From an uncultured Weeksellaceae bacterium (GTDB lineage Bacteria; Bacteroidota; Bacteroidia; Flavobacteriales; BACL11): a stretch of 63,456 bases of DNA. The translations under genes were made by a program, and so were the position numbers. This document shows, in pieces, positions 35,721 to 51,937 of this stretch. The notes under the pieces were generated by a model. It was given only the letters and a program-made list of their open reading frames with translations, ran no database searches and was not told the origin of the DNA. Every line of letters begins with the position of its first letter. The first letter of the stretch is position 1. Location of the stretch: the NCBI GenBank assembly GCA_964452095.1, contig CAYVKX010000002.1:1-63456 (forward strand), given 5' to 3'.

Positions 35721-35760
35721 GTGTTTTTACTTATCAAGCCCTTAAGAGAATTAAATTTTG

Positions 35761-35768
35761 TATTTTTG
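35761..35768 (+). promoter_or_regulatory. -7 box TATTTTTG for deoC and downstream genes
   Basis: 9 nt upstream of the ATG at 35778. Confidence 0.45.
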
Positions 35769-35777
35769 GAATCTATT

Positions 35778-36677
35778 ATGAACTTACCAAACCTATCTAA
35801 AATACCAAAAATCGATAAAGTTGGAGTGTATGAAAGAGTGAATCGTTTTTGTAAAAGAAGTGTTAAAACTTCCACAAAAGAATTTGGTTTGCACCTTACG
35901 CTCAGCATGATTGATTTAACTACTTTGGAAGGAAAAGACACTCCATCAAAAGTGAAACAGCTTTGTTATAAAGCTATGCATTTGCACGATTCTATGGGGG
36001 GATTGCCAACTGTTGCGGCAGTTTGTGTGTATCCAACTTTAGTAGGGATTGCAAAAAAAGAATTAAAAGGAAGTGGAATAAATATCGCATCTGTTGCAAC
36101 TGCTTTCCCATCCGGACAATCTACTTTAGAAGTGAAAATTTCTGACACAAAATATGCTGTAAATGAAGGTGCGGATGAAGTGGATATGGTGATTTCTAGA
36201 GGAAAGTTTTTAGCTGGAGAATACAATTTTGTATTTGATGAAATAGCGGCTGTAAAAGAAGCTTGCGGAAAAGCTCATTTAAAAGTAATTTTGGAAACTG
36301 GAGAGTTGGATACTTTGGATAATGTGCGAAAAGCATCTGATATTGCGATTTATGCTGGTGCTGATTTTATCAAAACTTCTACTGGGAAAATTAGTCCGGC
36401 AGCAACAATGCCAGTTACTTTTGTAATGCTGGATGCAATAAAAGATTATCATAAAAAAACAGGAATAAAAATTGGAATGAAGCCAGCTGGAGGAATTTCT
36501 ACTGCTAAAATTGCTTTACAATATTTAGTGATGTTAAACGAAACTTTAGGGAAGGATTGGATGAATAAGGGTTTGTTTAGGTTTGGCGCGAGTTCTTTGG
36601 CGAATGATGTTTTGATGCAACTTAAAAAACAAGAAAGTGGAATTTATCAATCCTTAGATTATTTTTCAAAAGATTAA
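35778..36677 (+). CDS. deoC: Deoxyribose-phosphate aldolase, long (eukaryote-like) form
   Basis: EVDMVI, and Schiff-base lysine context ADFIKTSTGK; PAGGI. The start is moved from GTG 35721 (inside the terminator tail) to ATG 35778. Confidence 0.85.
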   Translation: MNLPNLSKIPKIDKVGVYERVNRFCKRSVKTSTKEFGLHLTLSMIDLTTLEGKDTPSKVKQLCYKAMHLHDSMGGLPTVAAVCVYPTLVGIAKKELKGSGINIASVATAFPSGQSTLEVKISDTKYAVNEGADEVDMVISRGKFLAGEYNFVFDEIAAVKEACGKAHLKVILETGELDTLDNVRKASDIAIYAGADFIKTSTGKISPAATMPVTFVMLDAIKDYHKKTGIKIGMKPAGGISTAKIALQYLVMLNETLGKDWMNKGLFRFGASSLANDVLMQLKKQESGIYQSLDYFSKD

Positions 36678-36680
36678 AAG

Positions 36681-38138
36681 ATGACTAAAATAGATTTGTC
36701 AAAAAATTGGAACTTTGCATCTGCTGCAGAAAGCACAAAGCATATAAAATTAAAGAAAAAATATGGCTTGTTTATTGATGGGGAATTTGTAAAACCACAA
36801 TCAAAAAAATATTTTGGAACCATAAATCCTGCAACAGATGAGGTAATAGCTAAAATTGCAGAAGCAAATGAAAAAGATGTAGATTTGGCAGTTAGATCTG
36901 CAAGAAAGGCATTTAAAAGTTGGTCGAAATTAGAGCCGAAAGAAAGAGGAAAATACATTTTCAGAATTGCTAGAATGATTCAAGAACGAGCAAAAGAATT
37001 TGCCGTAATTGAAAGTTTAGATGGAGGAAAACCAATCCGAGAATCTCGTGATATTGATATTCCACTTGCTGCAAATCATTTCTTTTATTATGCGGGTTGG
37101 GCAGATAAATTAGAGTATGCTTTTCCGAATAAAAAACCTCAGCCATTGGGAGTTGCAGGACAAATTATTCCTTGGAATTTTCCACTTTTAATGGCGGCTT
37201 GGAAAATAGCTCCGGCACTTGCATGTGGAAATACAGTGGTATTAAAACCTGCTGAAACCACTTCACTTACTGCACTCAAATTAGCAGAACTTATAAAAGA
37301 TAGCGGACTTCCAAAAGGAGTGGTAAATATTGTAACGGGTGCTGGAAAAACGGGTGAGGCTATTGTAAATCATTCTGATATTAATAAAATTGCTTTTACT
37401 GGTAGTACAGCTGTTGGTAAAATGATTCAAAGAAGTATTGCTGGAACTAAAAAGAAATCAACTTTAGAGCTTGGAGGAAAAGGTGCTAATATCATTTTTG
37501 AGGATGCAGCAATCGACCAAGCTGTAGAAGGAATTGTGAACGCAATTTTCTTTAATCAAGGGCATGTTTGTTGTGCGGGTTCTCGCTTGTTTGTTCAGGA
37601 AAGTGTGGCAGATACAGTAATTGAAAAATTGAAAGATAGAATTTCAACATTAATTGTAGGTAATCCTCTAGATAAAAACACAGATATTGGGGCAATTAAT
37701 TCTGCTAATCAGCTAAAAACAATTAATAAATATATTGAGATTGGGAAAAAAGAAGGAGGAGAAATTTACCAACCAAAATGCAAAATTTCCAAGAAAGGAA
37801 ATTGGTGTCCTCCAACTTTATTTTTGAATGTTTCTCAGTCGCATACTATTGTTCAAGAAGAAATTTTCGGGCCAGTTTTAGCGATTCAAACTTTCAGAAC
37901 AATTGATGAGGTAATTGAAAAAGCAAACAATACTCCCTATGGTTTATCAGCAGGAGTTTGGACTGAAAAAGGTTCTAAAATTTTCAAACTCACACAAAAA
38001 TTAAATGCGGGAGTGGTATGGGCAAATACATATAATAAGTTCGATCCCACTTCTCCTTTTGGAGGATTTAAAGAGAGTGGATTTGGAAGAGAGGGCGGTT
38101 TGCATGGATTGAAATCATATTTAAAATTTAAGTCATGA
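36681..38138 (+). CDS. NAD(P)-dependent aldehyde dehydrogenase
   Basis: IIPWNFP, catalytic Glu in LELGGKG, catalytic Cys in FFNQGHVCCAGSR, EEIFGPV. Confidence 0.9.
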   Translation: MTKIDLSKNWNFASAAESTKHIKLKKKYGLFIDGEFVKPQSKKYFGTINPATDEVIAKIAEANEKDVDLAVRSARKAFKSWSKLEPKERGKYIFRIARMIQERAKEFAVIESLDGGKPIRESRDIDIPLAANHFFYYAGWADKLEYAFPNKKPQPLGVAGQIIPWNFPLLMAAWKIAPALACGNTVVLKPAETTSLTALKLAELIKDSGLPKGVVNIVTGAGKTGEAIVNHSDINKIAFTGSTAVGKMIQRSIAGTKKKSTLELGGKGANIIFEDAAIDQAVEGIVNAIFFNQGHVCCAGSRLFVQESVADTVIEKLKDRISTLIVGNPLDKNTDIGAINSANQLKTINKYIEIGKKEGGEIYQPKCKISKKGNWCPPTLFLNVSQSHTIVQEEIFGPVLAIQTFRTIDEVIEKANNTPYGLSAGVWTEKGSKIFKLTQKLNAGVVWANTYNKFDPTSPFGGFKESGFGREGGLHGLKSYLKFKS

Positions 38139-38995
38139 GCAGAATAGATGTACTAAAAACATATAAAATTTTTATTGGAGGAAAGTTTCCAAGAACAGAA
38201 TCAGGAAGATATTTTCATGTAAAAAATGAAGATGGAGATTTGCTTTCAAATATGTGTTTGTCTTCCAGAAAAGACTTTAGAAATGCAGTAGTTTCAGCAA
38301 GAAAAGCACAAAAAGGTTGGGAGGAGACAAAAGCTCTAAATAAAGGGCAAATTCTCTATAGAATTGCAGAAATGTTGGAAGGAAGAAAATCGCAATTTAT
38401 TGCTGAATTAATGCTGACAGGAAGCACGAAATCTGAGGGAAAAAAGGAAGTAGAATTGTCAATAGATAGATTGATTTATTATGCTGGTTGGAGCGATAAA
38501 TTTTCTCCAATTTTAAGCTCAGTAAATCCTGTTTCTTCTAATCACTTTAATTTTTCTGCACCAGAGGCAGTTGGAGTAGTTTCAGTAATTGCCCAAAATG
38601 AAGCACCCCTTTTAGGCTTAGTTTCAATGATAGCACCAATTATTGTTGGTGGAAATACCTCAGTTGTTCTTTCTTCAGAAAAAAATCCTATGATTAGTAT
38701 TTCTTTTGCTGAAGTTCTGAATACTTCTGATGTGCCAGCAGGAGTGGTAAATATTATGACTGGAAAAAGGGAAGAGTTACTTTCTCATTTTGCAACTCAT
38801 ATGGATGTAAACGCCATTATTTATTGTGGAAGTAATGAAAATCAAATAAAAGAAGTAGAAGAATTGTCAGTAGAAAATTTAAAAAGAACACAAATTTATA
38901 AACGAACAAATTGGGATGTAGCATCTGCTCAATCCCCATATTTTATTGAAAAATGCCAAGAAATAAAAACCACTTGGCATCCAACACAGGTATAA
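38135..38995 (+). CDS. ALDH-like protein consisting only of the N-terminal/cofactor-binding half (no catalytic Glu or Cys region)
   Basis: Aligns by eye to residues ~25-265 of the preceding ALDH (FIGGKF vs FIDGEF; PAGVVNIMTG vs PKGVVNIVTG) and stops where ELGGK would be. ATGA start/stop overlap with the upstream gene. Confidence 0.7.
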   Translation: MSRIDVLKTYKIFIGGKFPRTESGRYFHVKNEDGDLLSNMCLSSRKDFRNAVVSARKAQKGWEETKALNKGQILYRIAEMLEGRKSQFIAELMLTGSTKSEGKKEVELSIDRLIYYAGWSDKFSPILSSVNPVSSNHFNFSAPEAVGVVSVIAQNEAPLLGLVSMIAPIIVGGNTSVVLSSEKNPMISISFAEVLNTSDVPAGVVNIMTGKREELLSHFATHMDVNAIIYCGSNENQIKEVEELSVENLKRTQIYKRTNWDVASAQSPYFIEKCQEIKTTWHPTQV

Positions 38996-39019: not shown

Positions 39020-39811
39020 ATGAATTTTGAAGAACTATTAAAAACGGCAATCAATGCTTCTATAAAAGGAGGACATGCCATTATGGAAGTTTATGCTTCC
39101 GATTTTGCAGTGGAGCATAAAGAGGATAATTCTCCACTTACACTTGCAGATAAAAATTGTAATGATGTAATTGAAGCAGATTTACTTAAAACCAATATTC
39201 CGATTTTGAGTGAGGAAGGAGCAAAAACTCCATATTCTGAGAGAAAAGATTGGGAATATTCTTGGTTAGTTGACCCTTTAGATGGAACAAAAGAATTTGT
39301 AAAAAGAAATGGAGAGTTTACGGTAAACATTGCACTGATTCATAATGGAAACCCAATTATGGGAGTTATTTATGTCCCTGTAAAAGAAGAGTTGTATTTT
39401 GCTTTGGAGGGGTTAGGTTCTTATAAACTTAGCAGAAATTCAGTAATTGATAATTTGGAGAAACTGATTTCTAACTCAGATAAATTGCCGATTGATTATA
39501 ATAGAAATAATTATGTGGTGGTTGGTTCTCGTTCGCATATGTCTTCTGAAACAGAAGTATTTTTCAATCAGAAGAAAAAAGAGTATGGAAATGTAGAGGT
39601 GATGGTAGTTGGGTCATCATTAAAACTATGTATGGTAGCAGAGGGGAAGGCAGATGCTTATCCTAGATATGCCCCAACAATGGAATGGGATACAGGAGCT
39701 GGACATGCTATTGCAAAATATGCGGGTTTTTCTGTAAAACAATACGATTCAACAGAAGATGTAATTTACAATAAAGAGGATTTACTAAACCCTTGGTTTT
39801 TAGTGAAATAA
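39020..39811 (+). CDS. cysQ: 3'(2'),5'-bisphosphate nucleotidase CysQ (PAP phosphatase)
   Basis: ILSEEG, WLVDPLDGTKEF and MEWDTGAGHAI motifs of the inositol monophosphatase/CysQ family. Confidence 0.85.
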   Translation: MNFEELLKTAINASIKGGHAIMEVYASDFAVEHKEDNSPLTLADKNCNDVIEADLLKTNIPILSEEGAKTPYSERKDWEYSWLVDPLDGTKEFVKRNGEFTVNIALIHNGNPIMGVIYVPVKEELYFALEGLGSYKLSRNSVIDNLEKLISNSDKLPIDYNRNNYVVVGSRSHMSSETEVFFNQKKKEYGNVEVMVVGSSLKLCMVAEGKADAYPRYAPTMEWDTGAGHAIAKYAGFSVKQYDSTEDVIYNKEDLLNPWFLVK

Positions 39812-39815
39812 ACCC

Positions 39816-41166
39816 ATGAAAGAAAAGTTTTTAAAAGCATTAGAGGATAAAGATTTTTCTGAATTATTTAAGAAGGGAGGAGTGTCTTTTCTTATGCGTG
39901 TTGGCGGGCAAATTATGGGCTTTGTTATTACCTTTATAATTGCTCATTATTTTGGAGCAAAAGGATTGGGCGATTATGTTTTAGCAATAATTGTTTTAAG
40001 GATATTTACTTTAATAGCAAAATTGGGAATTGATACTTCTTCCATTCGGTTTATTGCTGAATATGCTGCTAAAAATCATTGGAAAGGTCTAAGAAAATAT
40101 AGAGAAAAAGTCTCATTACTTTTGCTATTTTCCACTTTATTATTTTCGATAATAATGTTTGTTTTTGCACTACCAATTGCAAATTTAGTAGGTGCAAATC
40201 CTTTTTATATTAAGCTGAATTCATTTTTTATTCTCCCAATGACATTTTTTGTTTTGAATTACCAAAGCTTAAGAGGAATGAAGAAAATAGCAGAATTTTC
40301 TTTTTTTTTATTGGATGTCAAGAGTTACTTTTTCGGCAGTAATAATTTTGATAGCTGTACAATTTTCAAGAAATGAAAACATTCCGATTCTTGCTTTTTT
40401 ACTAGGGTTAATTATTGTTTCTGTTTTGTCATATTTTGTTTTTTCTAACAAATTAGATTTAGAGGAAAGAAAAAACAATACAGCACAAAATGATTTAGGA
40501 ATAAGTTTAGGGTACAAAACAATACTTCTTGTTTCACTGCCATTATTATTGGCTCAATCAGGACAATTTATAATGGCTTGGACTGATAAACTGATGTTGG
40601 GAGGGTTTATGTCAGCAACAGAAGTAGGTGTTTATGATGTAGCATTTAAGTTATCTATGTTTGTGAATATAGCACTTACATCAGTAAATAGTATTTCCTC
40701 CCCAAAATTTGCCGAAATGTATGCTAAAAAAGATTTTAAGCGATTAGAGAAAATTGTTCATCAATCAACAAAAATTATTTTTTGGACTACAGTGCCATTA
40801 TTAGTGGTTTTCTTCTCATTTTCTTCTCAACTTTTATCATTATTTGGGGATGAGTTTGCTTCAGGAATGCAAGTGTTCATGATTTTGTGTTCAGCAAGAA
40901 TGGTTAGTGCTTTTTCTGGACCAGCAGGAAATTTGTTGCAAATGACTGGCAGACAAGTAATTTTCATGAAAGTGTTATTTATTGGAGCAATAATAAATTT
41001 TGGGCTAAACTTTATTTTAATCCCAAAATTTGGCATTGAAGGAGCTGCTTATGCTAGTATTTTTAGCATTGTTTTTTGGAACCTTACAATGGTTTATTTT
41101 GTAAAAAAAGAGTTTGGATTTTTAACAATATATATTCCTTTTTCTATAAAAAATAATGACAAATAA
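39816..41166 (+). pseudogene. wzx: Wzx-type (MOP superfamily) polysaccharide flippase split by a 1-nt frameshift in a T9 run (ORFs 39816-40376 and 40315-41166)
   Basis: The two adjacent ORFs (186 + 283 aa) together make a ~450-aa polytopic protein with a Polysacc_synt_C-like end (FGIEGAAYASIFSIVFWNL). The frames differ by +1 and both are open across ttttcttttttttta (40296-40310). Confidence 0.7.
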
Positions 41167-42052
41167 TTTACCAAATTTATTAATTGTTGGTGCAGCAAAA
41201 AGTGGGACTACTTCATTACACAACTATTTGAATCAACATTCTGATATTTTTATGTGCTCACCAAAAGAGCCACATTTTTTAATAAATAATGATATTGGAG
41301 TAAAGAGGATCCCCAAAGGTATTTTGAATTTTGAAGATTATAAATTGCTTTTTTCTGGAGTAGAAGATGTGAAATATAAAGGAGAATCAAGTGTGATGTA
41401 TTTGCAGTTTCCTGAGATTACTATTAAGAATATCAAAAGATATTTATCTAAGGATGTGAAAATTATTATTATGTTAAGAAATCCTGTAGAGCGTGCTTAT
41501 TCTGGGTTTCAACATGTGAAAAGGTATAACACACAAGAAAATTGCAAGGATTTTAAAACCGCTTGGGATATATCAGAACAGAGGTATTTTGAAAAAAAAG
41601 AAATAACTCCAGCCACAAGATATAAAGAGTTAGGTCTGTATCATAAACAAGTAAAATCTTTTTTAGAAGGACTGAAAAATGTTCATATTATTATTTATGA
41701 TGATTATTTATCAGATTTTCAAAAGGAAATGAATAGAGTGTTTGATTTTTTGGGAATAGAAAAAATGGAAGTAAATGCCAAGCAAAAACATATGGTTGGG
41801 GGGTGGCAATGGGAAAATGAGAAAATAAAAAACGTAATGATGAAGAAAAACCAATTTAAATCTTTTTTGAAGATTCTTATCCCATTCAAGGGAATCAGAA
41901 AAAAAATAAGAGGTAAGTTGCAAGAGAATAATACAATAAGAGTAGCTAAGATAAATGATAAAGATAAAGAAATGCTGAAAGAATTTTACAGAGAAGATGT
42001 AAAAAAACTTTCAGGATTATTAGGTAGGGATTTAAATTTTTGGACACAATGA
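41156..42052 (+). CDS. PAPS-dependent sulfotransferase (Sulfotransfer_1-like)
   Basis: 5'-PSB loop PNLLIVGAAKSGTTSL, KEPHFL, 3'-PB IIMLRNPVERAYSGF. Confidence 0.8.
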   Translation: MTNNLPNLLIVGAAKSGTTSLHNYLNQHSDIFMCSPKEPHFLINNDIGVKRIPKGILNFEDYKLLFSGVEDVKYKGESSVMYLQFPEITIKNIKRYLSKDVKIIIMLRNPVERAYSGFQHVKRYNTQENCKDFKTAWDISEQRYFEKKEITPATRYKELGLYHKQVKSFLEGLKNVHIIIYDDYLSDFQKEMNRVFDFLGIEKMEVNAKQKHMVGGWQWENEKIKNVMMKKNQFKSFLKILIPFKGIRKKIRGKLQENNTIRVAKINDKDKEMLKEFYREDVKKLSGLLGRDLNFWTQ

Positions 42053-42933
42053 GTTTGCCAAATTTTATGTGTATAGGAGCAGCAAAAAGCGGTACAACCA
42101 CTTTGTATGATATTTTGCGCCAACATCCTGATGTATTTATCCCTGCATTTAAGGAACCACATTTTTTTGATATTCCTGCTAATTATAAGAATGGAATTGC
42201 ATGGTATGAAAGAACTTATTTTAAATCAGTAAAAAATGAGAAATGTATTGCCGACTTCACTCCTTCTTATTTTTTTGAAGCAAATACAGCAAAAAGAATC
42301 TATAATGACTTAGGTGAAGATGTAAAGTTTATAGTCATTTTAAGAAATCCTGTTGATAGAGCTTATTCTCATTATTTACATTCTTTGCGAGATGAAAGGG
42401 AAGAATTGATATTTTCGGATGCAATAGAAATAGAAAAGCAAAGGTTGAGTAATTACAAGAAAAACAATGATGTCTTAAACTATTTGAGACATTCTTACAT
42501 TTCACAAAGTATGTATGGAAGCATGTTACAATTTTATTTAAAGGATTTTCCAATTGAGAATTTTTTAATTATTCATTTTGAAAAAGAATTTATTGCTCAA
42601 AGAAAACAAACCATAAAAAAGGTGCTTAATTTTTTGGACTTAGATGATGAAGTTGAACTCAAAATTGATTTGAAAAGTAATCCTGCAAGTAAAGCTCGTT
42701 CAAAAACAATAAAAAGAATGATGCAAAAAACAGGATGGTGGAGAACTATTCTTAAAATTATTTTGCCTTCACAAATAAGACAAATAATGAAAAACAGAAT
42801 TCAAAGAGCAAATATTAGTAGTTTTACCCCAGAACCCATACAAGAAGAAGAACGAAAAAGAATCTTTTTAAATTATTTTTCAGAAGATATAAAAATGTTA
42901 GAAAAATTATTAAATAAGAAAATGAATTGGTAG
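42049..42933 (+). CDS. PAPS-dependent sulfotransferase (Sulfotransfer_1-like), paralog of the preceding gene
   Basis: PNFMCIGAAKSGTTTL, KEPHFFD, VILRNPVDRAYSHY. The ATG at 42049 overlaps the upstream stop (ATGA); the track start at 42040 is TTG. Confidence 0.8.
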   Translation: MSLPNFMCIGAAKSGTTTLYDILRQHPDVFIPAFKEPHFFDIPANYKNGIAWYERTYFKSVKNEKCIADFTPSYFFEANTAKRIYNDLGEDVKFIVILRNPVDRAYSHYLHSLRDEREELIFSDAIEIEKQRLSNYKKNNDVLNYLRHSYISQSMYGSMLQFYLKDFPIENFLIIHFEKEFIAQRKQTIKKVLNFLDLDDEVELKIDLKSNPASKARSKTIKRMMQKTGWWRTILKIILPSQIRQIMKNRIQRANISSFTPEPIQEEERKRIFLNYFSEDIKMLEKLLNKKMNW

Positions 42934-44207
42934 TGAAATATCTTTTAAAACATAAAATAATTGACAATATAATTGTAATGTTATTAGTTTTTAGTAGCGG
43001 AGGATTACTTTTTGTTTTCAATAGAAATATCATGTATGCTGTATTTGCTTTTGTACTAGCTATTGCGTTTCTTTTCACAGGAAAAAAAATAAAAACAACT
43101 TTTTTTAATCAATCGCTTATTACTTTTATATTAGTAATCGCCTTGCTTAGTGTTAATTACTTTTTTGCAATTTCAGAACAATCTACAAATAAATATTTAT
43201 ATTACTTTATGGTTATTTCTGTTTCTGTTGCAACACTTTTTCATTTTTACAACAATAGAAGTAAGGATATATTTATTTCCAGATTATATTTTGTATTGAA
43301 GATAATTACTATACATGCGTTTATTCAAGTATTTGCATATTTAATTGTGGGCGGACAGTTAAAAACTATTATAAATGCTGAATATGAATGTGAGACATTT
43401 AATTACATCTTTTATTATGCTTTTTTAGAAGAAAAGAAACATGCTTTTATTTCCCTTTTTGGATTAGATATTATAAGAAATCAGGGGTTGTTTTGGGAGG
43501 CAGGAGTGGCACAAGTATTTTTTAATATATTTTTCTTTTTGGAGGCACATATCATAAAAAAAAGCAAATATTTATTAGTATTGGCAGCTATTACAATTCT
43601 CTCTACTTATTCTACTGCCGGCATCTCTATTTTAATGTTACAAATTATTTTTTATGTTGTAACCGAATTAAAAAAGAATAAAATAATTATCCCTATACTT
43701 TTAGTTGCAGCTTTGCCAGTATATAATATTTTCACTACCAATATAGAGGCGAAATTTTCTGGAGAACAAGAAGCATCATTTCAAAAAAGATTTTTTGACA
43801 TGGTGCAACCATTTTTTATTGCAGTAGAAAATCCGCTTACAGGAATTGGATTAGATCTTTATAAGTTTCAGGAGTATAGATATAATTTTACTTTTTCTTC
43901 CAATACCTTTGATGATTTGCAAAAGCAAACAGGATTTGAACTGAAAATGTCAGGAACTGATCAAGGAAGTAGCAATTCGTTTATGTTCTTATTAGCCACC
44001 ATGGGATTCCCTACCGGAATATTTTTTATTTATATGTTCTTTAAACAAAAAATAATTACTAAGCGAAAAGAGATGCTGTTTGCTATTATAGTTTTATCAT
44101 TAATGTCATCTCCATTGTTTTTACGCCCATTCTTTTTTGTATTCATTATGTCTGGTATTATGTTTACAATAAGTAAAATTTCAATGCAAAAAAATCAAAT
44201 AATATGA
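42927..44207 (+). CDS. wzy: Wzy-like O-antigen/EPS polymerase (polytopic membrane protein)
   Basis: About 10-11 hydrophobic segments with a large loop (RNQGLFWEAGVAQVFF). The start is ambiguous: TTG 42927, GTG 42933 or ATG 42978. Confidence 0.55.
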   Translation: MVVKYLLKHKIIDNIIVMLLVFSSGGLLFVFNRNIMYAVFAFVLAIAFLFTGKKIKTTFFNQSLITFILVIALLSVNYFFAISEQSTNKYLYYFMVISVSVATLFHFYNNRSKDIFISRLYFVLKIITIHAFIQVFAYLIVGGQLKTIINAEYECETFNYIFYYAFLEEKKHAFISLFGLDIIRNQGLFWEAGVAQVFFNIFFFLEAHIIKKSKYLLVLAAITILSTYSTAGISILMLQIIFYVVTELKKNKIIIPILLVAALPVYNIFTTNIEAKFSGEQEASFQKRFFDMVQPFFIAVENPLTGIGLDLYKFQEYRYNFTFSSNTFDDLQKQTGFELKMSGTDQGSSNSFMFLLATMGFPTGIFFIYMFFKQKIITKRKEMLFAIIVLSLMSSPLFLRPFFFVFIMSGIMFTISKISMQKNQII

Positions 44208-44247
44208 AACGAAAATTGTTCGCGAACACAATTAAAATAGTAGTAAA

Positions 44248-45381
44248 GTGAGTAAAAAAATATTAATAACAGGTGGGGCGGGATTTATTGGGTCTAATCT
44301 AACTAAGAAATTAGTTGAAAAAGGATATGAAGTTACCATACTTGATAATTTGTCCAAGCAAATACATGGAGAAGATCAATCTTCATCTTTGTATAAGTCT
44401 ATAAAAGAGATATCTCACTTTATTTTAGGAGATGTGCAAAATAAAGAGGATTGGAGAAAAGCGTTAGATGAGAAAGATGTTGTAATTCACTTAGCAGCAG
44501 AAACCGGCACAGGACAATCTATGTATGAAAAAGAAAAATATAATAATGTAAATATAGGAGGTACTAAAAACTTAATTGAACTATTAGAAAATGAGCAGCA
44601 CCAAATAAAAAAAGTAATAGTCGCTTCATCTAGAGCAGTATATGGAGAAGGAAAATATTATTGTAATCTACATAATATTCAATATCCACATAAAAGAAAA
44701 GATGAAGATTTAAGAAATGGAAAATTTAATCCAATATGTGAGAATTGTAAAAGAGAGTTACAGTTACTCCCAACAGATGAATCATCAGTAATTAATCCTT
44801 CTTCACATTATGCTACTACCAAATACCAACAAGAAAAAATGATATTGAAAATTGGGGAATTGTTGGAAATTCCATCTGTTGCGTTAAGATTTCAAAATGT
44901 TTATGGCCCAGGACAATCTTTATCCAACCCTTACACAGGAATCTTATCGATATTTTCAACAAGAATATTAAATGGAAATAATATAGATATTTATGAAGAT
45001 GGAAAGGAGAGTAGAGACTTTGTTTTTATTGATGATGTAGTTGATGCTACAATTTTAGCTTTAGAAAACAAAAATGCAAACAATCAAGTTTTTAATGTTG
45101 GATCTGGAGTGGGAACTTCTGTAGAAACTGTAGCCAATATGTTAAAAGAAAAATATAATAGTAGAATAAATTTAAAGATAAGTGGAAAATATAGAATTGG
45201 GGATATTAGGCATAATATTGCTGATTTAACAAAAGTGAAAAAAATATTAGGTTTTCAGCCAAAAGTTGATTTCAAAATGGGAATATCAAAGTTTGTAGAT
45301 TGGGTAAAAACACAAGAAGTACAGGAAGATAAATATGATATTTCTATTAAGGAACTGAAAGATAAAGGTATTATTAAATGA
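44248..45381 (+). CDS. NAD-dependent sugar-nucleotide epimerase/dehydratase (extended SDR) with a Cys/His-containing insertion
   Basis: ITGGAGFIGSNL, catalytic S...YATTK. GTG is the only available start. The insertion is CNLH...CENC at 44662-44748. Confidence 0.8.
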   Translation: MSKKILITGGAGFIGSNLTKKLVEKGYEVTILDNLSKQIHGEDQSSSLYKSIKEISHFILGDVQNKEDWRKALDEKDVVIHLAAETGTGQSMYEKEKYNNVNIGGTKNLIELLENEQHQIKKVIVASSRAVYGEGKYYCNLHNIQYPHKRKDEDLRNGKFNPICENCKRELQLLPTDESSVINPSSHYATTKYQQEKMILKIGELLEIPSVALRFQNVYGPGQSLSNPYTGILSIFSTRILNGNNIDIYEDGKESRDFVFIDDVVDATILALENKNANNQVFNVGSGVGTSVETVANMLKEKYNSRINLKISGKYRIGDIRHNIADLTKVKKILGFQPKVDFKMGISKFVDWVKTQEVQEDKYDISIKELKDKGIIK

Positions 45382-46778
45382 GAAATCTAATTATATTTTT
45401 TCTTTTATCTAGTAGTTATTCTTTTTCTCAAGAGGATAGGTCTAATTTATTTGGTTTTCGGTTAAGCACCTCTTTTGTATTTTTTGATGTTGAAGATACT
45501 ACTTTCTCCAATAAAGTAATGTCATTAAACCCTCAAGTTTTAAGTTTTCCAGGAGGGCTAGGGAATTTTTATCATCTCAATGGTAGAGCATACGGAATAA
45601 ATGTGGAGGAGGTAGAAAAGTATCATAAGGGAAGTAAACCGAAAATTGCTAAAACACTAAATAAAATTAGCAGCAACAAAGGGCATGAAAAAAATTATAT
45701 TTATGATTTTATAGTATTAGTAAAAAAGACTAATGCAAAAGTGATTTTTAATATAAACATTCTTAATGAAGCACCTCAAGATTATTTAAAAGCCCTTAAA
45801 CTTTTTTCTGAAAACAATATTGATTTGGTAGGAGTTGAGCTTGGAGGGGAACTTTCAAATAGTGTATATAAGCACATTATTGATGAAAAAAAATATATTG
45901 AATTAGCAAAAAAATGTGCAATAAAAGTGAGAAAAGAATTCCCAAATTTAAAAATTTCGGTAGTTGCAGCACCAGTTAATGTGCTCAAAAGACATGATAA
46001 TTGGAATAATGCTTTGGCAAAAGAAACCTTTTATGATGCGATAGTAGTTCATTCTTATGCTAAAGTTACAAAAGGAAAAAGTCGCTTTGGGCAAATGACA
46101 AACGAAACTTCTGAGGGGGGGAATAAAAAAGATGCTTTTGATTTATATAAACAAAGGACATTAAATTATTTTAAATATTCATATCCTAAAAATATTGAGG
46201 AATATAATATCGCATTTCAGGACAAGCCAATTTGGATAACCGAATGGAATTTGCAAATGTCAAAGATTACTGCTAATACACTTTTTCAAGGGATTTTTGC
46301 AGCAAATTATTTGTTAGAATTGTGTACAAATCCGAAATTACAAACAATAGAACTTACCACTTTTCATAACTTTGCGGGAAGAACTCTTTCAGGATCAATG
46401 CTCTTGAAAAAAGAAAATAAAACCTATGTTTTATCTACATATCTACCAATGAAAATGATGAGTGTTCTTTTTTCGGATTCAAGATTAGTTGGAAGCAAAC
46501 AAATTATTGCTAAAGAATGTTTTGCATATCAATTTACAGATAAGGAAACTTCAAAGCAACTCATTTATTTTATTAATTGGTCAGACAAATCGGTTATGCA
46601 TACAATGAAAAAAAGCAAGAAAGATGATTGGATAAAAACTGAATATTTTGCAGATGAATTATATAGCACTACAATGGATGAAAAAAACACTTTTCAATTC
46701 CTCACTCAAAAAATAAAATATGTTTCTGAGATTAATTTGAAACCTTATAGTATTACTTTATTACAGATAGATGAATAG
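45378..46778 (+). CDS. Secreted clan GH-A-like (beta/alpha)8 glycoside-hydrolase-like protein
   Basis: Signal peptide MRNLIIFFLLSSSYSFSQ, LSFPGG, GVELGGE (in place of the usual ELGNE acid/base strand), and IWITEWN (nucleophile-type strand). Confidence 0.5.
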   Translation: MRNLIIFFLLSSSYSFSQEDRSNLFGFRLSTSFVFFDVEDTTFSNKVMSLNPQVLSFPGGLGNFYHLNGRAYGINVEEVEKYHKGSKPKIAKTLNKISSNKGHEKNYIYDFIVLVKKTNAKVIFNINILNEAPQDYLKALKLFSENNIDLVGVELGGELSNSVYKHIIDEKKYIELAKKCAIKVRKEFPNLKISVVAAPVNVLKRHDNWNNALAKETFYDAIVVHSYAKVTKGKSRFGQMTNETSEGGNKKDAFDLYKQRTLNYFKYSYPKNIEEYNIAFQDKPIWITEWNLQMSKITANTLFQGIFAANYLLELCTNPKLQTIELTTFHNFAGRTLSGSMLLKKENKTYVLSTYLPMKMMSVLFSDSRLVGSKQIIAKECFAYQFTDKETSKQLIYFINWSDKSVMHTMKKSKKDDWIKTEYFADELYSTTMDEKNTFQFLTQKIKYVSEINLKPYSITLLQIDE

Positions 46779-47787
46779 CACAAAACAAATATTTGTTGTT
46801 GGAAGCGGCAGAAGTGGCACAACAATGATGGGAAGGATTCTTGGAAATCATTCTGAGATTTTCACTTTTAAAGAAATTCATTTTTTAGGGTGGATGTATT
46901 CTGCAGAAACAATGCATGCCAATTTAAAAAATCAAGAAGCTGTTGAATTATTGTCAGATTTATTTGCAATACAAAAAGACGGAATATTTCTGAAAGAAAA
47001 CCCAAAACAATTTAACAATAAAGCAGAAAGGTATTTAGAGGGGAGGGTAAGCTTAAAAGCAGTAGATATATATGAATTGTTTTTAAAAAAAATAACAGAA
47101 GAAAATAATTGTAGTATTGCTTGCGAGCAAACGCCAAAAAATATTTTTTATATCTCAGAATTATTGAATACTTTCCCTGAGGCTAAGATTGTTCATATGG
47201 TAAGAGATAGTAGAGATGTGTTGCTTTCACAGAAGAATAAATGGAAAAGAAGATTTCTTGGGGCAAGTAAAATTCCTTTAAGAGAAGCAATAAGATCCTA
47301 TATGAATTATCACCCCCTTACTTCAGCAAAGTTTTGGAATTCTGCAGTTTTACATGGTAATAAAATGGAAAATAACGAAAGAGTTTTAAGTGTGAAATTT
47401 GAAGATGTATTGATGCAGCCAGAGAAAAAAATAAAAGAAATTTGCAAATTTACAGGTATAGATTTTGAGAACAGAATGTTAGCTGTTCCTAATATAGGCT
47501 CTTCTACACAAGCGGATAATAAGAGCGAATTAAAGATTGATAAATCAAAAATTAATAAATGGGAAAAGGGAGGATTGAATAATGCAGAGATTTTTTTATC
47601 TCAACTTATTAGTAAGAAAATGATGAATGCTTATAACTATCCTTTGAAGAAATTTTTTGTACCTTCCATCTATGTTGTGTTTTATCTTTTGTCATTTCCA
47701 ATAAAAACTGGAATTGCATTATTATTAAATTTAAAAAGAATTGGCAATATTTCAGAGATGATAAAACAAAGATTCATAGCAAAATGA
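46771..47787 (+). CDS. PAPS-dependent sulfotransferase (Sulfotransfer_3-like) with a C-terminal hydrophobic anchor
   Basis: FVVGSGRSGTTMMG, HMVRDSRDVLLSQ, and C-terminal FFVPSIYVVFYLLSFPIKTGIALLL. Confidence 0.75.
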   Translation: MNSTKQIFVVGSGRSGTTMMGRILGNHSEIFTFKEIHFLGWMYSAETMHANLKNQEAVELLSDLFAIQKDGIFLKENPKQFNNKAERYLEGRVSLKAVDIYELFLKKITEENNCSIACEQTPKNIFYISELLNTFPEAKIVHMVRDSRDVLLSQKNKWKRRFLGASKIPLREAIRSYMNYHPLTSAKFWNSAVLHGNKMENNERVLSVKFEDVLMQPEKKIKEICKFTGIDFENRMLAVPNIGSSTQADNKSELKIDKSKINKWEKGGLNNAEIFLSQLISKKMMNAYNYPLKKFFVPSIYVVFYLLSFPIKTGIALLLNLKRIGNISEMIKQRFIAK

Positions 47788-48650
47788 AAGTAGATTTTTT
47801 TATAGTAGGAGCACCAAAAGCAGGAACCACTTCTTTATATCATTACTTAAATGAGCATCCTAAAATTGTGATGAGCACACAAAAAGAAACAGATTTCTTT
47901 TCAGATGAATCTCTTCAAAAACAAGCAATGTATTATGGAAAAAATAGAATAAATACCATTGAAAAATACCATGCTCTTTTTCAAAATACAGAGAAGGAAG
48001 TACTTGGTGAGGCAAGCGTTTCCTATCTTTTTTATGATGATGTCCCAAAAAAAATAAAAATATATAATCCAAATGGAAAGATTATTATCCTGCTTAGAAA
48101 CCCTATAGATAGAGCTTTTTCTCATTACTTGATGGATTATCGATTGGGGTTGGTTAGCCAAAGTTTTGATGAAATTGTAGGAGCAAAAAATAAAGATGAA
48201 AAAACAAAATTATTTTATCAACAGTATATCGAATTGGGAATGTATTATCAACAAGTAAAAAGATATTTGGATGTTTTTGGAAAAGAAAATATTTGCATTT
48301 TATTTTATCAGGATTTTAAGCAAGATGGTGCAAAGGAAGTTAAAAACATTTATCAGTTTTTAGGAGTAGAAAGTAATTTTGAGGCAGAAGTAGGAAAAAA
48401 ACACAACACATTTAGTATGCCAAAAAATGCTATTGTCCGAAAAATTTATTCTGTGGTTTGGCTTAGGAAATTATTGAATAAATTTATTCCAAGCAGTATA
48501 ATAAAAACAATAAAAACTACTCTTTTTAGAAAAGATAAAAAACCAAAATTATCAGAAGAAAGTAGGTTGGAATTATATGCAGTGTTTAATGAAGATGTTA
48601 AGCAATTAGAGGAGCTTCTTGCAAAAGATTTATCGAGATGGAGAAAATAG
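47784..48650 (+). CDS. PAPS-dependent sulfotransferase (Sulfotransfer_1-like), third paralog
   Basis: FFIVGAPKAGTTSL, KETDFF, ILLRNPIDRAFSHY. ATGA overlap with the upstream gene. Confidence 0.8.
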   Translation: MKVDFFIVGAPKAGTTSLYHYLNEHPKIVMSTQKETDFFSDESLQKQAMYYGKNRINTIEKYHALFQNTEKEVLGEASVSYLFYDDVPKKIKIYNPNGKIIILLRNPIDRAFSHYLMDYRLGLVSQSFDEIVGAKNKDEKTKLFYQQYIELGMYYQQVKRYLDVFGKENICILFYQDFKQDGAKEVKNIYQFLGVESNFEAEVGKKHNTFSMPKNAIVRKIYSVVWLRKLLNKFIPSSIIKTIKTTLFRKDKKPKLSEESRLELYAVFNEDVKQLEELLAKDLSRWRK

Positions 48651-49546
48651 GATTAGTAACAATTACATATAATTCTGCTGATGTATTAAAACCATTTTTG
48701 GATTGTGTTTTTGCACAAACTCATGATAATTTGATGCTGTATGTAATTGATAATTCCTCCACCGATTCCACTTTATCTATTTTAGAAAATCAAGCAGATA
48801 AAAGATTATACATCATCAAAAACGAAAATAATCTTGGAGTTGCAAAAGGGAATAATCAAGGGATAAAAAAAGCAATTTTTGATGGGGTGGATCAATTACT
48901 TATTATAAATAATGATGTGGAATTTGAAGCAACTTTAATTGAGAAATTATTAAAAGTTCAGCAAGAAAAAAAGTGCAGTTTGGTAACGCCAAAAATGATG
49001 TATTTTGATAATCCGAATAACTTTTGGTATGCAGGAAGTTGGTTTATAAAAAGTAAAGGATATTTGCCTTTGCACAGAGGGATGAAAGAAATAGATAATG
49101 GGCAATATGATAAAATTCAGGAGGTAGAATACGCCCCAACTTGTTGTCTTTTAGCTAAAAAGGAAATTTTTGAAGATGTTGGGTTTATGGATGAAAAATA
49201 TTTTGTCTATTTTGATGATACCGATTTTTCTTTTAGAATATGGAAAGATGGTAGGCATAAAATGTTTTATGTGCCAAATATTAAGTTTTTTCATAAAGTT
49301 GGGAGTTTAACAAATTCTTTCCAGAAAGAAAATAAGAAAACTTATAGAGGGGATTTCTTTATCAAGCAAACTACAAAAAACCATGTTTATTTTCTAAAGA
49401 AAATAGGAGGATTATTTGCTAATCTTTTTATTTTTTGGTTGTTTTTTAAAAACAATATAAGGTTTGTAGTTAATCCTCAAATAAAAAAGAATTTTGCAAC
49501 ATGGTGGCTCATAAATAAATCTTATTTTCAAGGGTTGTTTTTATAA
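48638..49546 (+). CDS. Family 2 glycosyltransferase (rhamnosyltransferase-like)
   Basis: LVTITYNS, VIDNSSTD, NLGVAKGNNQG, DxD-type FDDTDF. Confidence 0.8.
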   Translation: MEKIGLVTITYNSADVLKPFLDCVFAQTHDNLMLYVIDNSSTDSTLSILENQADKRLYIIKNENNLGVAKGNNQGIKKAIFDGVDQLLIINNDVEFEATLIEKLLKVQQEKKCSLVTPKMMYFDNPNNFWYAGSWFIKSKGYLPLHRGMKEIDNGQYDKIQEVEYAPTCCLLAKKEIFEDVGFMDEKYFVYFDDTDFSFRIWKDGRHKMFYVPNIKFFHKVGSLTNSFQKENKKTYRGDFFIKQTTKNHVYFLKKIGGLFANLFIFWLFFKNNIRFVVNPQIKKNFATWWLINKSYFQGLFL

Positions 49547-50470
49547 CTCCCTTCCAATTGTAAGAGAATCTGTAAAAATTTCCTCAACTATAATTTTACT
49601 TACACTTTCTGTTGTGTGAGTAGGGTCCTTAAAAGAACTTTTATTTTTAGTGATTACATTAGGGAATTCAAAATCGATAACCCTACCAATAGTTGAAATA
49701 TCTTCTTTAAAAATCAACTCTTCTTCTAATAAGTCAAAGTCGGCTACCCTATTTTGATACTCAATATGTGTAGGCATTATTAATATTGTAAGGTTAATCT
49801 TATGCTTATTGCAATAAGCATTAACCTCCTGTAATTGTTTCAAAATCCCTTTAGGATAGACATATTTAGCATACTGATTAAAGGCTTTTTCATCAATAGA
49901 TTTCCTCCATATTAAGTCCTTATTTTTTTTAATTTTTTCTTCTATATTATTAGAAAAATGATACTTTGAAGATAAATAAACAGTTTGTGCAATATTTCTG
50001 TTAAAGAGATAAATTAATGGGTTTTCTAATATTTGTTTTACATCTTGAACCCTATCAGCAAAAGCATATTCATTATACAGATTAAAATGCAATCCAATAA
50101 TCACATTCTTCAATTTTGTATACTCTGTAGTAAGCCAAAATAAGTCAACTATTTCATTCAGTTTTGCAGCATTAGAATATAAAGTATAATACTCATCTCC
50201 AGTCAATAATTTAATATGATCAGTTGGAAGAACTCTTATGCGAGAGTCCCCAATAATCACATTTTCAGTTGGATTATTAATAAATCCAATTGAATTATAT
50301 AATATGGAATTTAATTGCTTTGCAGATTTCTCTTTTGCTTTAGCAGAAATAAAGCTTGAATGATTGAAATAATTGAAAGGATCAACAATCATTACAATGC
50401 AAATCCAAGCAATGATTGGTAATATAAAAACAAAACACTTTTTTAATAATATTTTTACTTCTTTAGTCAT
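49541..50470 (-). CDS. Membrane-anchored SGNH/DltD-like partner of the MBOAT acyltransferase
   Basis: N-terminal TM helix, GDS block VIIGDSRIR, C-terminal D-x-x-H block FKDPTHTT. The start directly abuts the MBOAT stop (TAGATG). Confidence 0.55.
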   Translation of the reverse strand: MTKEVKILLKKCFVFILPIIAWICIVMIVDPFNYFNHSSFISAKAKEKSAKQLNSILYNSIGFINNPTENVIIGDSRIRVLPTDHIKLLTGDEYYTLYSNAAKLNEIVDLFWLTTEYTKLKNVIIGLHFNLYNEYAFADRVQDVKQILENPLIYLFNRNIAQTVYLSSKYHFSNNIEEKIKKNKDLIWRKSIDEKAFNQYAKYVYPKGILKQLQEVNAYCNKHKINLTILIMPTHIEYQNRVADFDLLEEELIFKEDISTIGRVIDFEFPNVITKNKSSFKDPTHTTESVSKIIVEEIFTDSLTIGREL

Positions 50471-51937
50471 CTAAAATTGAAAATAAATAAAATTATTAAC
50501 TCTAGAGTAAGGGGCTAAAAATAAGATGCCAAAAATTAGGATGTAATAGACTAACCATCTTACCCATCTCTTTTTAGATTCTAATTTCACCCATACATCT
50601 CCACTTCTTTCATAAAGATTGTATAATTCCATAAACAGAATTAGCGCAAAATTTATTTTCATATCCATTTTCTGCACCCCCAATCCTCTTAACTTCAATT
50701 GCATTTTTCCAAAATCGGTGTAATCTCCAATATCAGAAAACATATTTCCAATTACATAATATGCATCTGAGATATTGTTTGCTCTAAAGAATATCCAAGC
50801 GAAAACAGCTAATGCAAAAGTAAAGCCAACTTGATATATTTTATGAATGTAAGTGTTGTTTAATTTGAATAAATCAAGAATATATTGTTTAGGTTTTCTT
50901 AGCCCGATAGCCATAATTAAATAAGTTCCATGCAAAGCCCCCCAAGCCAAAAAAGTCCAATTTGCTCCATGCCAAAACCCACTAACAAGGAAAGTAATAA
51001 ACAAATTATAGTACCACCGCCATTTCACCACTCTATTCCCACCAAGAGGAATGTATAAATAATCACGAAACCAAGTAGAAAGCGATATATGCCACCTTTG
51101 CCAAAATTCCGAAATTGATTTGGAGAAATAAGGGCGTTTGAAATTATCCATTAATTCAAACCCCATTACTCTTGCTGAGCCAATTGCGATATCAGAATAT
51201 CCAGAAAAATCGCAATAAATTTGGAAAGTAAAAAATATGGTTGCGATTACTAATGAGAAGCCAGAATAATTATCCAAATTATTATAGACTCCATCTACTA
51301 CAATAGCTAATCTATCTGCAATTACTACTTTTTTAAAGAACCCCCAAAGCATTTGTTGTAAGCCGAATTTGACTCTATCATAGCTGAATTTATGCTCTAC
51401 AAAAAATTGAGGCAAAAGATGGTTTGACCTCTCAATTGGGCCTGCAACTAGTTGAGGGAAAAAGGAAACGTATACCGCAAAAATTCCTAAATGATTTTGT
51501 ACAGGTGTTTTCCCATTATACACATCAATGGTGTAACTTAAGGTTTGAAAAGTGTAAAATGAAATTCCAACAGGGAGCAAAACATCAAATGCAGGAACGC
51601 CATAAAAAACATTAAAATTATCAAATAATGCCTGAACATTCGTGTTTACAAAATTGAAGTATTTAAAGCCAAACAAAATCCCAAGATTAGAAATCAAGCT
51701 AATTAAAAGCCATTTTTTTCTTTTTGCTTTTTCCGTTAATTCTGCCATCTTTTTAGCTACAAAATAATCGATAAGAGTAGAGGCAATTATTAAAACTATA
51801 TACTCCACCTTCCAGCACATATAAAAATAATAGGAAGCTATTAATAATAGAATCCATCTTCTTTTTTGAGGAAGCAAAAAGAATATGCTAACGACTATAG
51901 GGAAGAAAATTAAAAATTGAAGGGAATTAAATAGCAT
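50471..51937 (-). CDS. MBOAT-family O-acyltransferase (AlgI/DltB-like)
   Basis: Polytopic; FWQRWHISLSTWFRDYLYIPLGGNR and the conserved His in SGFWHGANW. Confidence 0.88.
   Translation of the reverse strand: MLFNSLQFLIFFPIVVSIFFLLPQKRRWILLLIASYYFYMCWKVEYIVLIIASTLIDYFVAKKMAELTEKAKRKKWLLISLISNLGILFGFKYFNFVNTNVQALFDNFNVFYGVPAFDVLLPVGISFYTFQTLSYTIDVYNGKTPVQNHLGIFAVYVSFFPQLVAGPIERSNHLLPQFFVEHKFSYDRVKFGLQQMLWGFFKKVVIADRLAIVVDGVYNNLDNYSGFSLVIATIFFTFQIYCDFSGYSDIAIGSARVMGFELMDNFKRPYFSKSISEFWQRWHISLSTWFRDYLYIPLGGNRVVKWRWYYNLFITFLVSGFWHGANWTFLAWGALHGTYLIMAIGLRKPKQYILDLFKLNNTYIHKIYQVGFTFALAVFAWIFFRANNISDAYYVIGNMFSDIGDYTDFGKMQLKLRGLGVQKMDMKINFALILFMELYNLYERSGDVWVKLESKKRWVRWLVYYILIFGILFLAPYSRVNNFIYFQF

Follow-up and report, generated by a model that had tools for sequence, protein, structure and literature searches.

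Four sulfotransferase genes in a Wzx/Wzy operon

We analysed a stretch of 63,456 nt (hereafter, the window) from the forward strand of contig CAYVKX010000002.1 of assembly GCA_964452095.1, which belongs to an uncultured Weeksellaceae bacterium (Flavobacteriales; BACL11); the source genome has 2.08 Mb in 180 contigs and is 100% complete by marker genes. The window contains an operon in which four sulfotransferase (ST) genes, ST1 to ST4, stand among genes for the Wzx/Wzy-dependent assembly of a polysaccharide. From the sequences, we judge it likely that the four products are active, cytoplasmic carbohydrate sulfotransferases, dependent on 3'-phosphoadenosine 5'-phosphosulfate (PAPS), that decorate the undecaprenyl-diphosphate (Und-PP)-linked repeat unit before it is flipped. 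The bacterium very probably makes a heavily sulfated surface polysaccharide.

As the original prediction had placed them, all four genes are intact open reading frames (ORFs) on the + strand: ST1 at 41156-42052 (298 aa), ST2 at 42049-42933 (294 aa, counted from the ATG at 42049), ST3 at 46771-47787 (338 aa) and ST4 at 47784-48650 (288 aa). They are translationally coupled, with junctions of -4 nt (overlaps) between ST1 and ST2 and between ST3 and ST4. The operon comprises cysQ, wzx, ST1, ST2, wzy, a gene for a short-chain dehydrogenase/reductase (SDR) epimerase, a gene for a 466-aa protein, ST3, ST4 and a gene for a family 2 glycosyltransferase (GT2). The junctions from wzx to the GT2 gene are, in order, -11, -4, -7, +40, -4, -8, -4 and -13 nt; that is, these genes overlap by 4-13 nt, with one 40-nt gap as the sole exception. 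The single terminator-like site found within 38.9-53.3 kb is located inside cysQ. The proposal that the four sulfotransferases belong to one operon fits these junctions.

The other operon genes are all on the + strand. cysQ (39020-39811) encodes a 3'(2'),5'-bisphosphate nucleotidase, which clears 3'-phosphoadenosine 5'-phosphate (PAP), and matches NCBIfam TIGR01331 at 259.6 bits (cut-off 228.8). The wzx flippase gene (39816-41166) is split in two ORFs, with Polysacc_synt/MatE matches on each half. The wzy-type polymerase gene (42927-44207; Pfam Wzy_C 39.6 bits, cut-off 31.7) is kept at the same position in relatives with 40-52% identity. Next come the NAD-dependent sugar epimerase/dehydratase (44248-45381; Pfam Epimerase 177 bits) and the 466-aa protein (45378-46778), which has no Pfam or NCBIfam match and occupies the same position in 9/9 related loci (42-54% identity). 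The GT2 gene (48638-49546; Pfam Glycos_transf_2 79.3 bits) closes the operon.

ST1, ST2 and ST4 resemble heparan sulfate sulfotransferases

We found that ST1, ST2 and ST4 match Pfam Sulfotransfer_1 (PF00685) with 64, 64.4 and 89 bits, respectively (cut-off 22), and that ST3 matches Sulfotransfer_3 (PF13469) with 96.6 bits (cut-off 27); these scores are far beyond chance. In the NCBIfam scan, none of the four was assigned to a named family, and the PHROGs scan of the sulfotransferases gave one weak, unnamed match, for ST1. Non-sulfotransferase P-loop proteins were considered as the identity of ST1-4 and rejected on the sequence matches of all four proteins and the fold matches of ST3.

Each of ST1, ST2 and ST4 has the 5'-phosphosulfate-binding (5'-PSB) loop GxxKxGT[TS] with its Lys (GAAKSGTT at residues 12-19 of ST1 and 10-17 of ST2; GAPKAGTT at 9-16 of ST4), then a KExxF motif (KEPHF at 37-41 of ST1, KEPHFFD at 35-41 of ST2 and KETDF at 34-38 of ST4), and the 3'-phosphate-binding (3'-PB) motif LRNPxxRA[YF]S (LRNPVERAYS at 107-116, LRNPVDRAYS at 98-107 and LRNPIDRAFS at 104-113, respectively). 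Hence, the motifs of the consensus given in the original prediction are present, and its wording needs three minor corrections: ST2 reads P-N-F-M-C-I-G, with C and I instead of I and V/G at the fifth and sixth positions, ST4 lacks the leading Pro, and ST1 has M-L-R-N-P instead of (I/L)-L-R-N-P.

K15, E38, R108 and S116 (ST1 numbering) are invariant in an alignment of the genome's five paralogs of this subfamily. We used the same alignment as the query of a profile search against the PDB, and found that the Lys of GAxKxGTT falls in the column of the Lys of G-V-R/K-K-G-G-T in HS3ST5 and HS3ST3A1, the Glu of KExxF in that of the Glu of QEIHFFD and AEPHFFD (HS3ST5 and HS3ST3A1), and the Arg and Ser of LRNPxxRAxS in those of the HS3ST motif V-R-E/D-P-x-x-R-A-x-S. 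We take the aligned HS3ST/NDST columns to be the catalytic and PAPS-contacting residues of the published structures. Hence, the catalytic Glu, the PAPS-contacting Lys and the 3'-PB Arg and Ser are all in place in ST1, ST2 and ST4. Over the E-x-H-F-F-D region, ST2 is complete (EPHFFD), whereas ST1 has EPHFLI and ST4 has ETDFFS. The 5'-PSB/3'-PB reading is correct for all four proteins, by Pfam match and motif position and, for ST1, ST2 and ST4, by residues aligned with HS3ST columns.

The top PDB-sequence match of each of the three proteins is a bacterial one, 3RNL, over the full length (E values of 8.8e-34, 1.9e-36 and 3.2e-46 for ST1, ST2 and ST4). Besides 3RNL, their strong PDB matches are the heparan sulfate (HS) enzymes NDST1 and HS3ST1/3A1/5 only: as single sequences, ST2 matches HS3ST5 at 1.5e-19 and HS3ST3A1 at 3.6e-19, which makes it the most HS3ST-like of the set, and ST4 matches NDST1 at 6.2e-14. 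With the profile, we found E values of 6.7e-83 for 3RNL, 1.8e-23 for HS3ST5, 3.9e-22 for HS3ST3A1 and 1.5e-19 for NDST1 (HS enzymes overall, 1.8e-23 to 4.8e-16), versus 1.6e-5 or weaker for cytosolic SULTs. The likeness to HS 3-O/N-sulfotransferases, first noticed by eye, is thus borne out. The alignment to the HS enzymes stops near query residue 200 of ~295, and the C-terminal ~90 residues align with 3RNL only. Since the HS similarity is limited to ~200 residues and the closest relatives are bacterial (3RNL and the cyanobacterial XssA, below), ST1, ST2 and ST4 are best classed, from their sequences, as a bacterial sister subfamily and not as members of the animal HS3ST/NDST families. Their mode of action would be that of HS-type carbohydrate sulfotransferases. 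In Pfam scans of the window proteins, the locus showed no gene resembling a heparosan synthase.

The animal HS enzymes share with ST1, ST2 and ST4 the PAPS-binding architecture and the position of the catalytic Glu (and, with ST2, the full E-P-H-F-F-D), but their C-terminal substrate-binding part is not alignable. They are Golgi-lumenal type II membrane proteins, whereas ST1, ST2 and ST4 are predicted to be soluble and cytoplasmic: their Kyte-Doolittle maximum over 19 residues stays below 0.8, with no hydrophobic segment, which fits the cytoplasm, the site of PAPS synthesis.

ST3 belongs to another subfamily and has a C-terminal helix

ST3 had been set apart as a different subfamily, and it is one: besides its Sulfotransfer_3 match, its nearest relatives by sequence and fold are the CurM/olefin synthase (OLS) sulfotransferase domains and TPST. 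By sequence, the best solved relatives are the sulfotransferase domains of olefin synthase (7.6e-8) and CurM (9.8e-6), then TPST. The motifs of ST3 are GSGRSGTT (11-18), KEIHF (34-38) and VRDSRDVLLS (144-153), and 32 homologs (53-100% identity) all keep R14 (at the Lys position), E35, H37, R145 and S153. E35 and H37 align with the E and H of PPELHLL in the olefin synthase sulfotransferase.

An AlphaFold2 model of ST3, built on the 32-homolog alignment, had a pLDDT of 75.7 and a pTM of 0.73. In a Foldseek search of the PDB, all of the top 50 matches were sulfotransferases, with no other P-loop protein among them; the CurM/OLS/TPST group was matched at an E value of 3.3e-7 and a template-modelling (TM) score of 0.54 normalised to the target. 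Hence, for ST3 as for the other three proteins, the best matches are sulfotransferases. With CurM/OLS (4GBM, 4GOX), TPST1/2 and NodH, ST3 shares the R-S-G-T/S-T variant of the 5'-PSB (Arg for Lys), the E-x-H motif and the fold. Their substrates are, in contrast, an acyl-ACP intermediate, tyrosine and a lipochitooligosaccharide, and ST3 differs from them as a stand-alone protein of a glycan operon with an extra hydrophobic C-terminal helix.

The original prediction also gave ST3 a C-terminal membrane anchor. We found that the hydrophobic stretch is real (Kyte-Doolittle 19-residue maximum of 1.82 at residues 300-318, the only such stretch in the four sulfotransferases above the transmembrane threshold), as is the helix, which the model places at 301-319; P298, P310, K312, N320 and R323 of this tail are invariant in the 32 homologs. 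With so borderline a hydropathy score, a membrane tether is plausible, and we keep that part of the claim at this strength. At the cluster level, ST3 has 1,114 homologs, most of which come from marine metagenomes, TARA among them.

The locus is conserved and ST1, ST2 and ST4 are ancient paralogs

We found the same gene order in nine loci of Flavobacteriales/Cryomorphaceae metagenome-assembled genomes (MAGs), with 3-5 sulfotransferases each (L001-L007, L029 and L078). The flanking genes (cysC, NT158, deoC, two aldehyde dehydrogenase (ALDH) genes and cysQ) are 75-94% identical, leaving aside the cysDN-type cysC, versus 40-77% for the stretch that runs from wzx to GT2/GT4. Members of the ST1/2/4 subfamily occur in 24/24 sampled genomes of the same GTDB family (0.9-2.1 Mb; 1-7 copies), in 6/16 sampled genomes of other families of the order and, more widely, as >582 relatives across many phyla. 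The locus is conserved in a family of Flavobacteriales with 1-2 Mb genomes. Our literature search found no paper on such a sulfotransferase/Wzy locus in Flavobacteriia.

The mutual identity of ST1, ST2 and ST4 is 28-32%, while each is 47-66% identical to its positional orthologs in other genomes. We built a maximum-likelihood tree with 60 sequences, in which each of the three falls in a separate ortholog clade (support 100/100 for ST1, 100/99 for ST2 and 100/99 for ST4). Chitinophagales genes lie inside the ST2 and ST4 clades, and are sister (100/99) to the joint clade of ST1 and ST1', a further paralog; Chitinophagales loci have five or six sulfotransferase genes. The Alicyclobacillus homologs fall in a different clade, near a paralog on contig C28 of the same genome. 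Whether ST1, ST2 and ST4 are recent tandem duplicates had been posed as a question for phylogeny, and the answer is negative, given the low mutual identity and the separate ortholog clades that reach Chitinophagales. Since each paralog has its own ortholog clade shared across orders, the duplications are not recent; they are older than the divergence of these orders, or else the set was transferred between orders as a unit.

The younger pair in the tree is ST1 and ST1' (98/89 support). ST1' lies between wzx and ST1 or ST2 in 8/9 related loci (all except L004) and is absent here, at 41150-41170. Two loci (L029 and L078) have ST1' only and L004 has ST1 only. Hence, the sulfotransferase set is modular between strains.

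Five more sulfotransferase-domain genes lie elsewhere in the genome (C9:22359-23243, C28:6265-7224, C26:12224-12889, C43:14473-15138 and C40:7548-7739). Those on C9 and C28 belong to the ST1/2/4 subfamily, and those on C26, C40 and C43 are more distant. With a Wza/Wzc-like pair ~4-5 kb away, the C26 gene suggests a second locus for a sulfated glycan.

Comparison with characterised systems

Sulfotransferase genes in a polysaccharide locus are a design already known from cyanobacteria, Vibrio and Cobetia. By sequence comparison, the closest characterised system is the synechan xss cluster on plasmid pSYSM of Synechocystis sp. PCC 6803; this cluster's sulfated exopolysaccharide, synechan, requires XssA for its production (PMC8205485). 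We compared XssA and XssE (from pSYSM NC_005229) in a nine-protein database, and found that XssA is 25% identical to ST4 over 293 aa (E value 2e-27), with the motifs GGMKCATSTL, KEPNFF and MRHPIDRLVS, and that XssE, a Sulfotransfer_3 protein, is 19% identical to ST3 over 316 aa (6e-9). XssA belongs to the subfamily of ST1, ST2 and ST4, and ST1 and ST4 are of the 3RNL/XssA type. Hence, both loci are Wzx/Wzy-dependent clusters with two kinds of sulfotransferase, and in both the export genes lie elsewhere in the genome. The two systems differ in that the xss cluster has two sulfotransferases and eight glycosyltransferases, with ~2 sulfates per 8 sugars (PMC8205485), versus four sulfotransferases and two glycosyltransferases plus an initiating transferase here. 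Synechocystis is also of another phylum, the XssQRS regulator is absent here, and here the PAPS genes are linked to the locus.

3RNL, to which ST1, ST2 and ST4 are closest among solved structures over their full length, is from a Gram-positive source, Alicyclobacillus acidocaldarius; it is a deposited structure for which we found no functional study. In Vibrio sp. KMM 8419 and Cobetia marina KMM 1449, PAPS genes together with sulfotransferases were proposed as a hallmark of sulfated polysaccharides (PMC11641403, PMC11766843). Those loci likewise have assembly genes, sulfotransferases and PAPS genes (cysC; cysQ in Cobetia) in one region, but with ABC-transporter (Kps) export, canonical cysDN and one to three sulfotransferases over 70-80 genes, whereas the present locus has a Wzx/Wzy pathway, four sulfotransferases within 7.5 kb and no cysDN. 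According to a 2024 review, few bacterial polysaccharide sulfotransferases are characterised.

Members of Sulfotransfer_1 and Sulfotransfer_3 have highly varied acceptors, with NodH, Stf0, the Bacteroides cholesterol sulfotransferase and TPST as examples, and some or all of the four enzymes could act on a glycolipid, lipid A or lipopolysaccharide core, a small metabolite or a protein. The nearest solved relatives of ST3 act on a polyketide intermediate and on tyrosine, and the five further sulfotransferase-domain genes of this genome also speak for such acceptors. However, all four genes lie within the wzx-to-GT2 transcription unit, where stop and start codons overlap, and their positions are kept in the nine related loci. 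The nearest non-bacterial relatives of ST1, ST2 and ST4 are, moreover, polysaccharide sulfotransferases, and genetic evidence ties XssA, a member of the ST1/2/4 subfamily, to a sulfated polysaccharide. We therefore regard acceptors outside the Wzx/Wzy glycan as very improbable.

Probable PAPS supply next to the operon

The gene for the adenosine 5'-phosphosulfate (APS) kinase, which converts APS to PAPS, is 4 kb upstream of the operon (cysC, 34559-35170, + strand; Pfam APS_kinase 239 bits; NCBIfam adenylyl-sulfate kinase 295.6 bits, over the cut-off), and it is the only APS kinase gene of the genome. We searched the genome with PF01507 (CysD/PAPS_reduct) and PF01747 (Sat) and found no CysD- or Sat-type ATP sulfurylase. 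Directly after cysC is the gene for NT158 (35192-35668, + strand), a 158-aa orphan adenylyltransferase of the HIGH-motif type with a GRFQPYHQGH motif, a weak CTP_transf_like match and scores below every NCBIfam cut-off. ATP sulfurylases catalyse adenylyl transfer from ATP with release of pyrophosphate. Since the genome lacks CysDN and Sat, NT158 is the most likely source of APS. On balance, we favour the idea that this candidate is a third type of ATP sulfurylase, which would make the APS for the PAPS used by the four sulfotransferases. Our literature search found nothing relevant on a non-orthologous ATP sulfurylase.

A housekeeping role of NT158 as NadD or CoaD was rejected, since the genome has separate genes for NadD and CoaD at other places, as well as for an RfaE-type heptose adenylyltransferase and, judged by motif only, a probable RibF.

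Between the same flanks (a TonB-C gene and deoC), sister genomes hold either cysC-NT158 or cysN-cysD-cysC. Among 68 genomes of the family, 55 have CysC, and of these 15 have NT158 and 40 have CysD, with none having both and none neither; since the genomes are related, they do not count as independent samples, and a large number of them are incomplete MAGs. NT158 adjoins cysC in 15/15 of the family genomes that have it. In the high-quality subset of 21 genomes, the split between NT158 and CysD is 7 versus 14, and one genus shows both states. This distribution is consistent with cysC-NT158 being a mobile two-gene module that replaced cysDN several times within the family.

NT158 homologs (65-76% identity) also occur on 36 marine viral contigs of IMG/VR, with an APS-kinase-like gene directly upstream in 33 of them. 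On one viral contig (L096, 3551-4450), the kinase and NT158 are fused in a single ORF of 299 aa. On another (L087, 2713-4459), a sulfotransferase-like gene stands ahead of the kinase-NT158 pair, which would be a complete viral sulfation module.

The NT158 model (pLDDT 73.3) matches archaeal nicotinamide mononucleotide (NMN) adenylyltransferases and phosphopantetheine adenylyltransferase (PPAT) with a TM score of ~0.6. Its invariant GRGVGYEINE loop is the divergent, low-confidence part of the model.

Between the PAPS genes and cysQ (35721-38995) are deoC, a full-length ALDH gene and a half-length ALDH paralog. This block is kept in place in 6/9 related loci with 75-89% identity; one locus (L078) is cut at the ALDH end.

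Evidence against the assignment and alternative readings

Several observations weigh against a pathway of four active sulfotransferases that acts as we propose. ST4 has Asp instead of His after the catalytic Glu (KETDF), and the same His is also absent from two paralogs elsewhere in the genome (M and K); NDST1, too, presumably lacks this His, although the motif was not placed in the NDST1 alignment. The ST3 tail is barely above the usual transmembrane threshold and holds an invariant Pro and Lys. The nearest solved relatives of NT158, a putative ATP sulfurylase, are NMN adenylyltransferases. The wzx gene, as assembled, is interrupted by an extra T; if this frameshift is real, the pathway is blocked or phase-off in the cell. 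Family scans found no genes for the polysaccharide co-polymerase (PCP) or outer-membrane polysaccharide export (OPX) protein within the window. Finally, the bacterium belongs to an uncultured lineage, and its acceptor sugar and sulfated positions are predictions from gene content.

With invariant Pro and Lys within it, the ST3 helix may instead have a peripheral or protein-protein role.

The substituted His of ST4 bears on whether gene number overstates the number of sulfated positions, as it would if the paralogs were partly redundant or non-catalytic (scaffolds, or isoenzymes for one position). The variation of 3-5 sulfotransferases among otherwise syntenic loci also points that way, in that none is indispensable for the locus, as does synechan, where deletion of xssE made little difference (PMC8205485). 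On the other hand, the five paralogs of this genome all keep the Lys, Glu, Arg and Ser, the counterparts of these residues are invariant in the 32 ST3 homologs, and separate ortholog groups kept across order-level divergence at 28-32% mutual identity are the pattern expected of distinct specificities. Hence, we hold redundancy or loss of catalysis to be improbable. The separate conservation of four ortholog groups speaks for as many specificities, and makes several distinct sulfation positions on one repeat unit, as the original prediction had it, a reasonable inference.

The wzx lesion raises a different question, namely whether the sulfotransferase genes are intact in a pathway that is off or decaying here, through phase variation at the T-run or as an early pseudogene. 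wzx reads as two ORFs (39816-40376 and 40315-41166), with T9 at ~40301-40309 where the frame needs T8, whereas in 9/9 relatives it is one intact ORF of 441-457 aa with EFSFFY(R/W)MSQ across the site. The window also lacks ST1', carried by most related loci. Still, the rest of the operon is intact and tightly coupled, and in a draft of 180 contigs, homopolymers misassembled by one base are common. We consider an inactive pathway in this strain unlikely, though less so than the other alternatives; it is compatible with the assignment of the four enzymes to carbohydrate sulfation.

Elsewhere in the genome, we found three Wza-like and several Wzz/Wzc-like genes, with candidates on contigs C11, C23 and C26. 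Since the export genes are elsewhere and not in the window, a capsule and an O-antigen are indistinguishable.

Genes downstream of the operon

Downstream of the operon are an inverted membrane-bound O-acyltransferase (MBOAT) pair, a family 4 glycosyltransferase (GT4) gene, gmhA, a gmhB::gmd fusion ORF and a gene for a WecA-type initiator. The pair consists of the MBOAT acyltransferase (50471-51937, - strand; Pfam MBOAT 95.9 bits) and its membrane-anchored partner of 309 aa (49541-50470, - strand), which has an N-terminal hydrophobic segment (Kyte-Doolittle 19-residue maximum of 2.72) and no family match. The two probably function in O-acylation of the glycan. The inverted pair accompanies ST3 in 5/6 of the loci that have ST3 and is absent from 3/3 loci without it, which hints that sulfation by ST3 and MBOAT modification are linked.

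The genes from the GT4 gene to the initiator gene are on the + strand. The GT4-type glycosyltransferase gene (52037-53179; Pfam Glycos_transf_1 91.5 bits) is followed by genes for sugar-precursor supply (53207-55358): a gmhA-like SIS isomerase gene (SIS_2 97.9 bits) and then a single ORF (53736-55358) for a GmhB-type heptose bisphosphate phosphatase (150 bits) and a GDP-mannose 4,6-dehydratase (gmd, 459.6 bits). An RfaE-domain-II adenylyltransferase is encoded on contig C8. With gmhA-like, GmhB-type and RfaE-type genes, heptose or 6-deoxyheptose may be a component of the glycan. The initiating sugar-phosphate transferase is of the WecA/MraY family (55366-56430; Pfam Glycos_transf_4 145 bits). 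After it is a 575-aa ORF (56366-58093) with no Pfam or NCBIfam match, whose counterpart in L005 is 60% identical.

Proposed pathway and its significance

Wzx (frameshifted), Wzy_C, Glycos_transf_4, GT2 and GT4 components of a Wzx/Wzy cluster thus accompany the sulfotransferases, in an arrangement kept in the nine loci. Since PAPS is made in the cytoplasm, ST1, ST2 and ST4 are predicted to be soluble, and the sulfotransferase genes lie within the Wzx/Wzy unit, sulfation would take place on the lipid-linked unit at the inner face of the membrane, ahead of flipping. We infer the acceptor, the sulfated positions, the order of steps, the tethering of ST3 and the activity of NT158 in the following scheme. 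The WecA-type transferase would start the unit on the undecaprenyl-diphosphate carrier, and the GT2 and GT4 enzymes would extend it. Soluble ST1, ST2 and ST4, plus a probably membrane-held ST3, would each move sulfate from PAPS to a different position, with PAPS coming from CysC and APS most likely from the adjacent NT158, while CysQ would clear the inhibitory by-product PAP. Wzx would then flip the unit and Wzy would polymerise it, and the MBOAT pair would O-acylate the glycan outside the cytoplasm. Given only two glycosyltransferases plus an initiator versus four sulfotransferases, each sugar of the repeat unit could, on average, bear more than one sulfate.

The PAPS module (cysC-NT158) next to the locus is the more valuable lead, and APS synthesis without CysDN or Sat is the part likeliest to give new biochemistry. 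Together with 3RNL and XssA, ST1, ST2 and ST4 would form the bacterial subfamily closest to HS N-/3-O-sulfotransferases among solved structures, and the predicted solubility of these three makes them practical candidates for the enzymatic sulfation of oligosaccharides. To our knowledge, bacterial polysaccharide sulfotransferases with a known acceptor are very rare.

For a long time, sulfated polysaccharides were regarded as almost exclusive to animals, algae and cyanobacteria. Here, a whole family of streamlined marine Flavobacteriales with 1-2 Mb genomes keeps three to five such enzymes in a short operon. At four sulfotransferases to roughly three sugar-transfer steps, the charge density of the glycan could approach that of a glycosaminoglycan. 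So high a charge, if present, would have consequences for phage adsorption, grazing and metal binding, and for the sulfated carbon pool of the sea.

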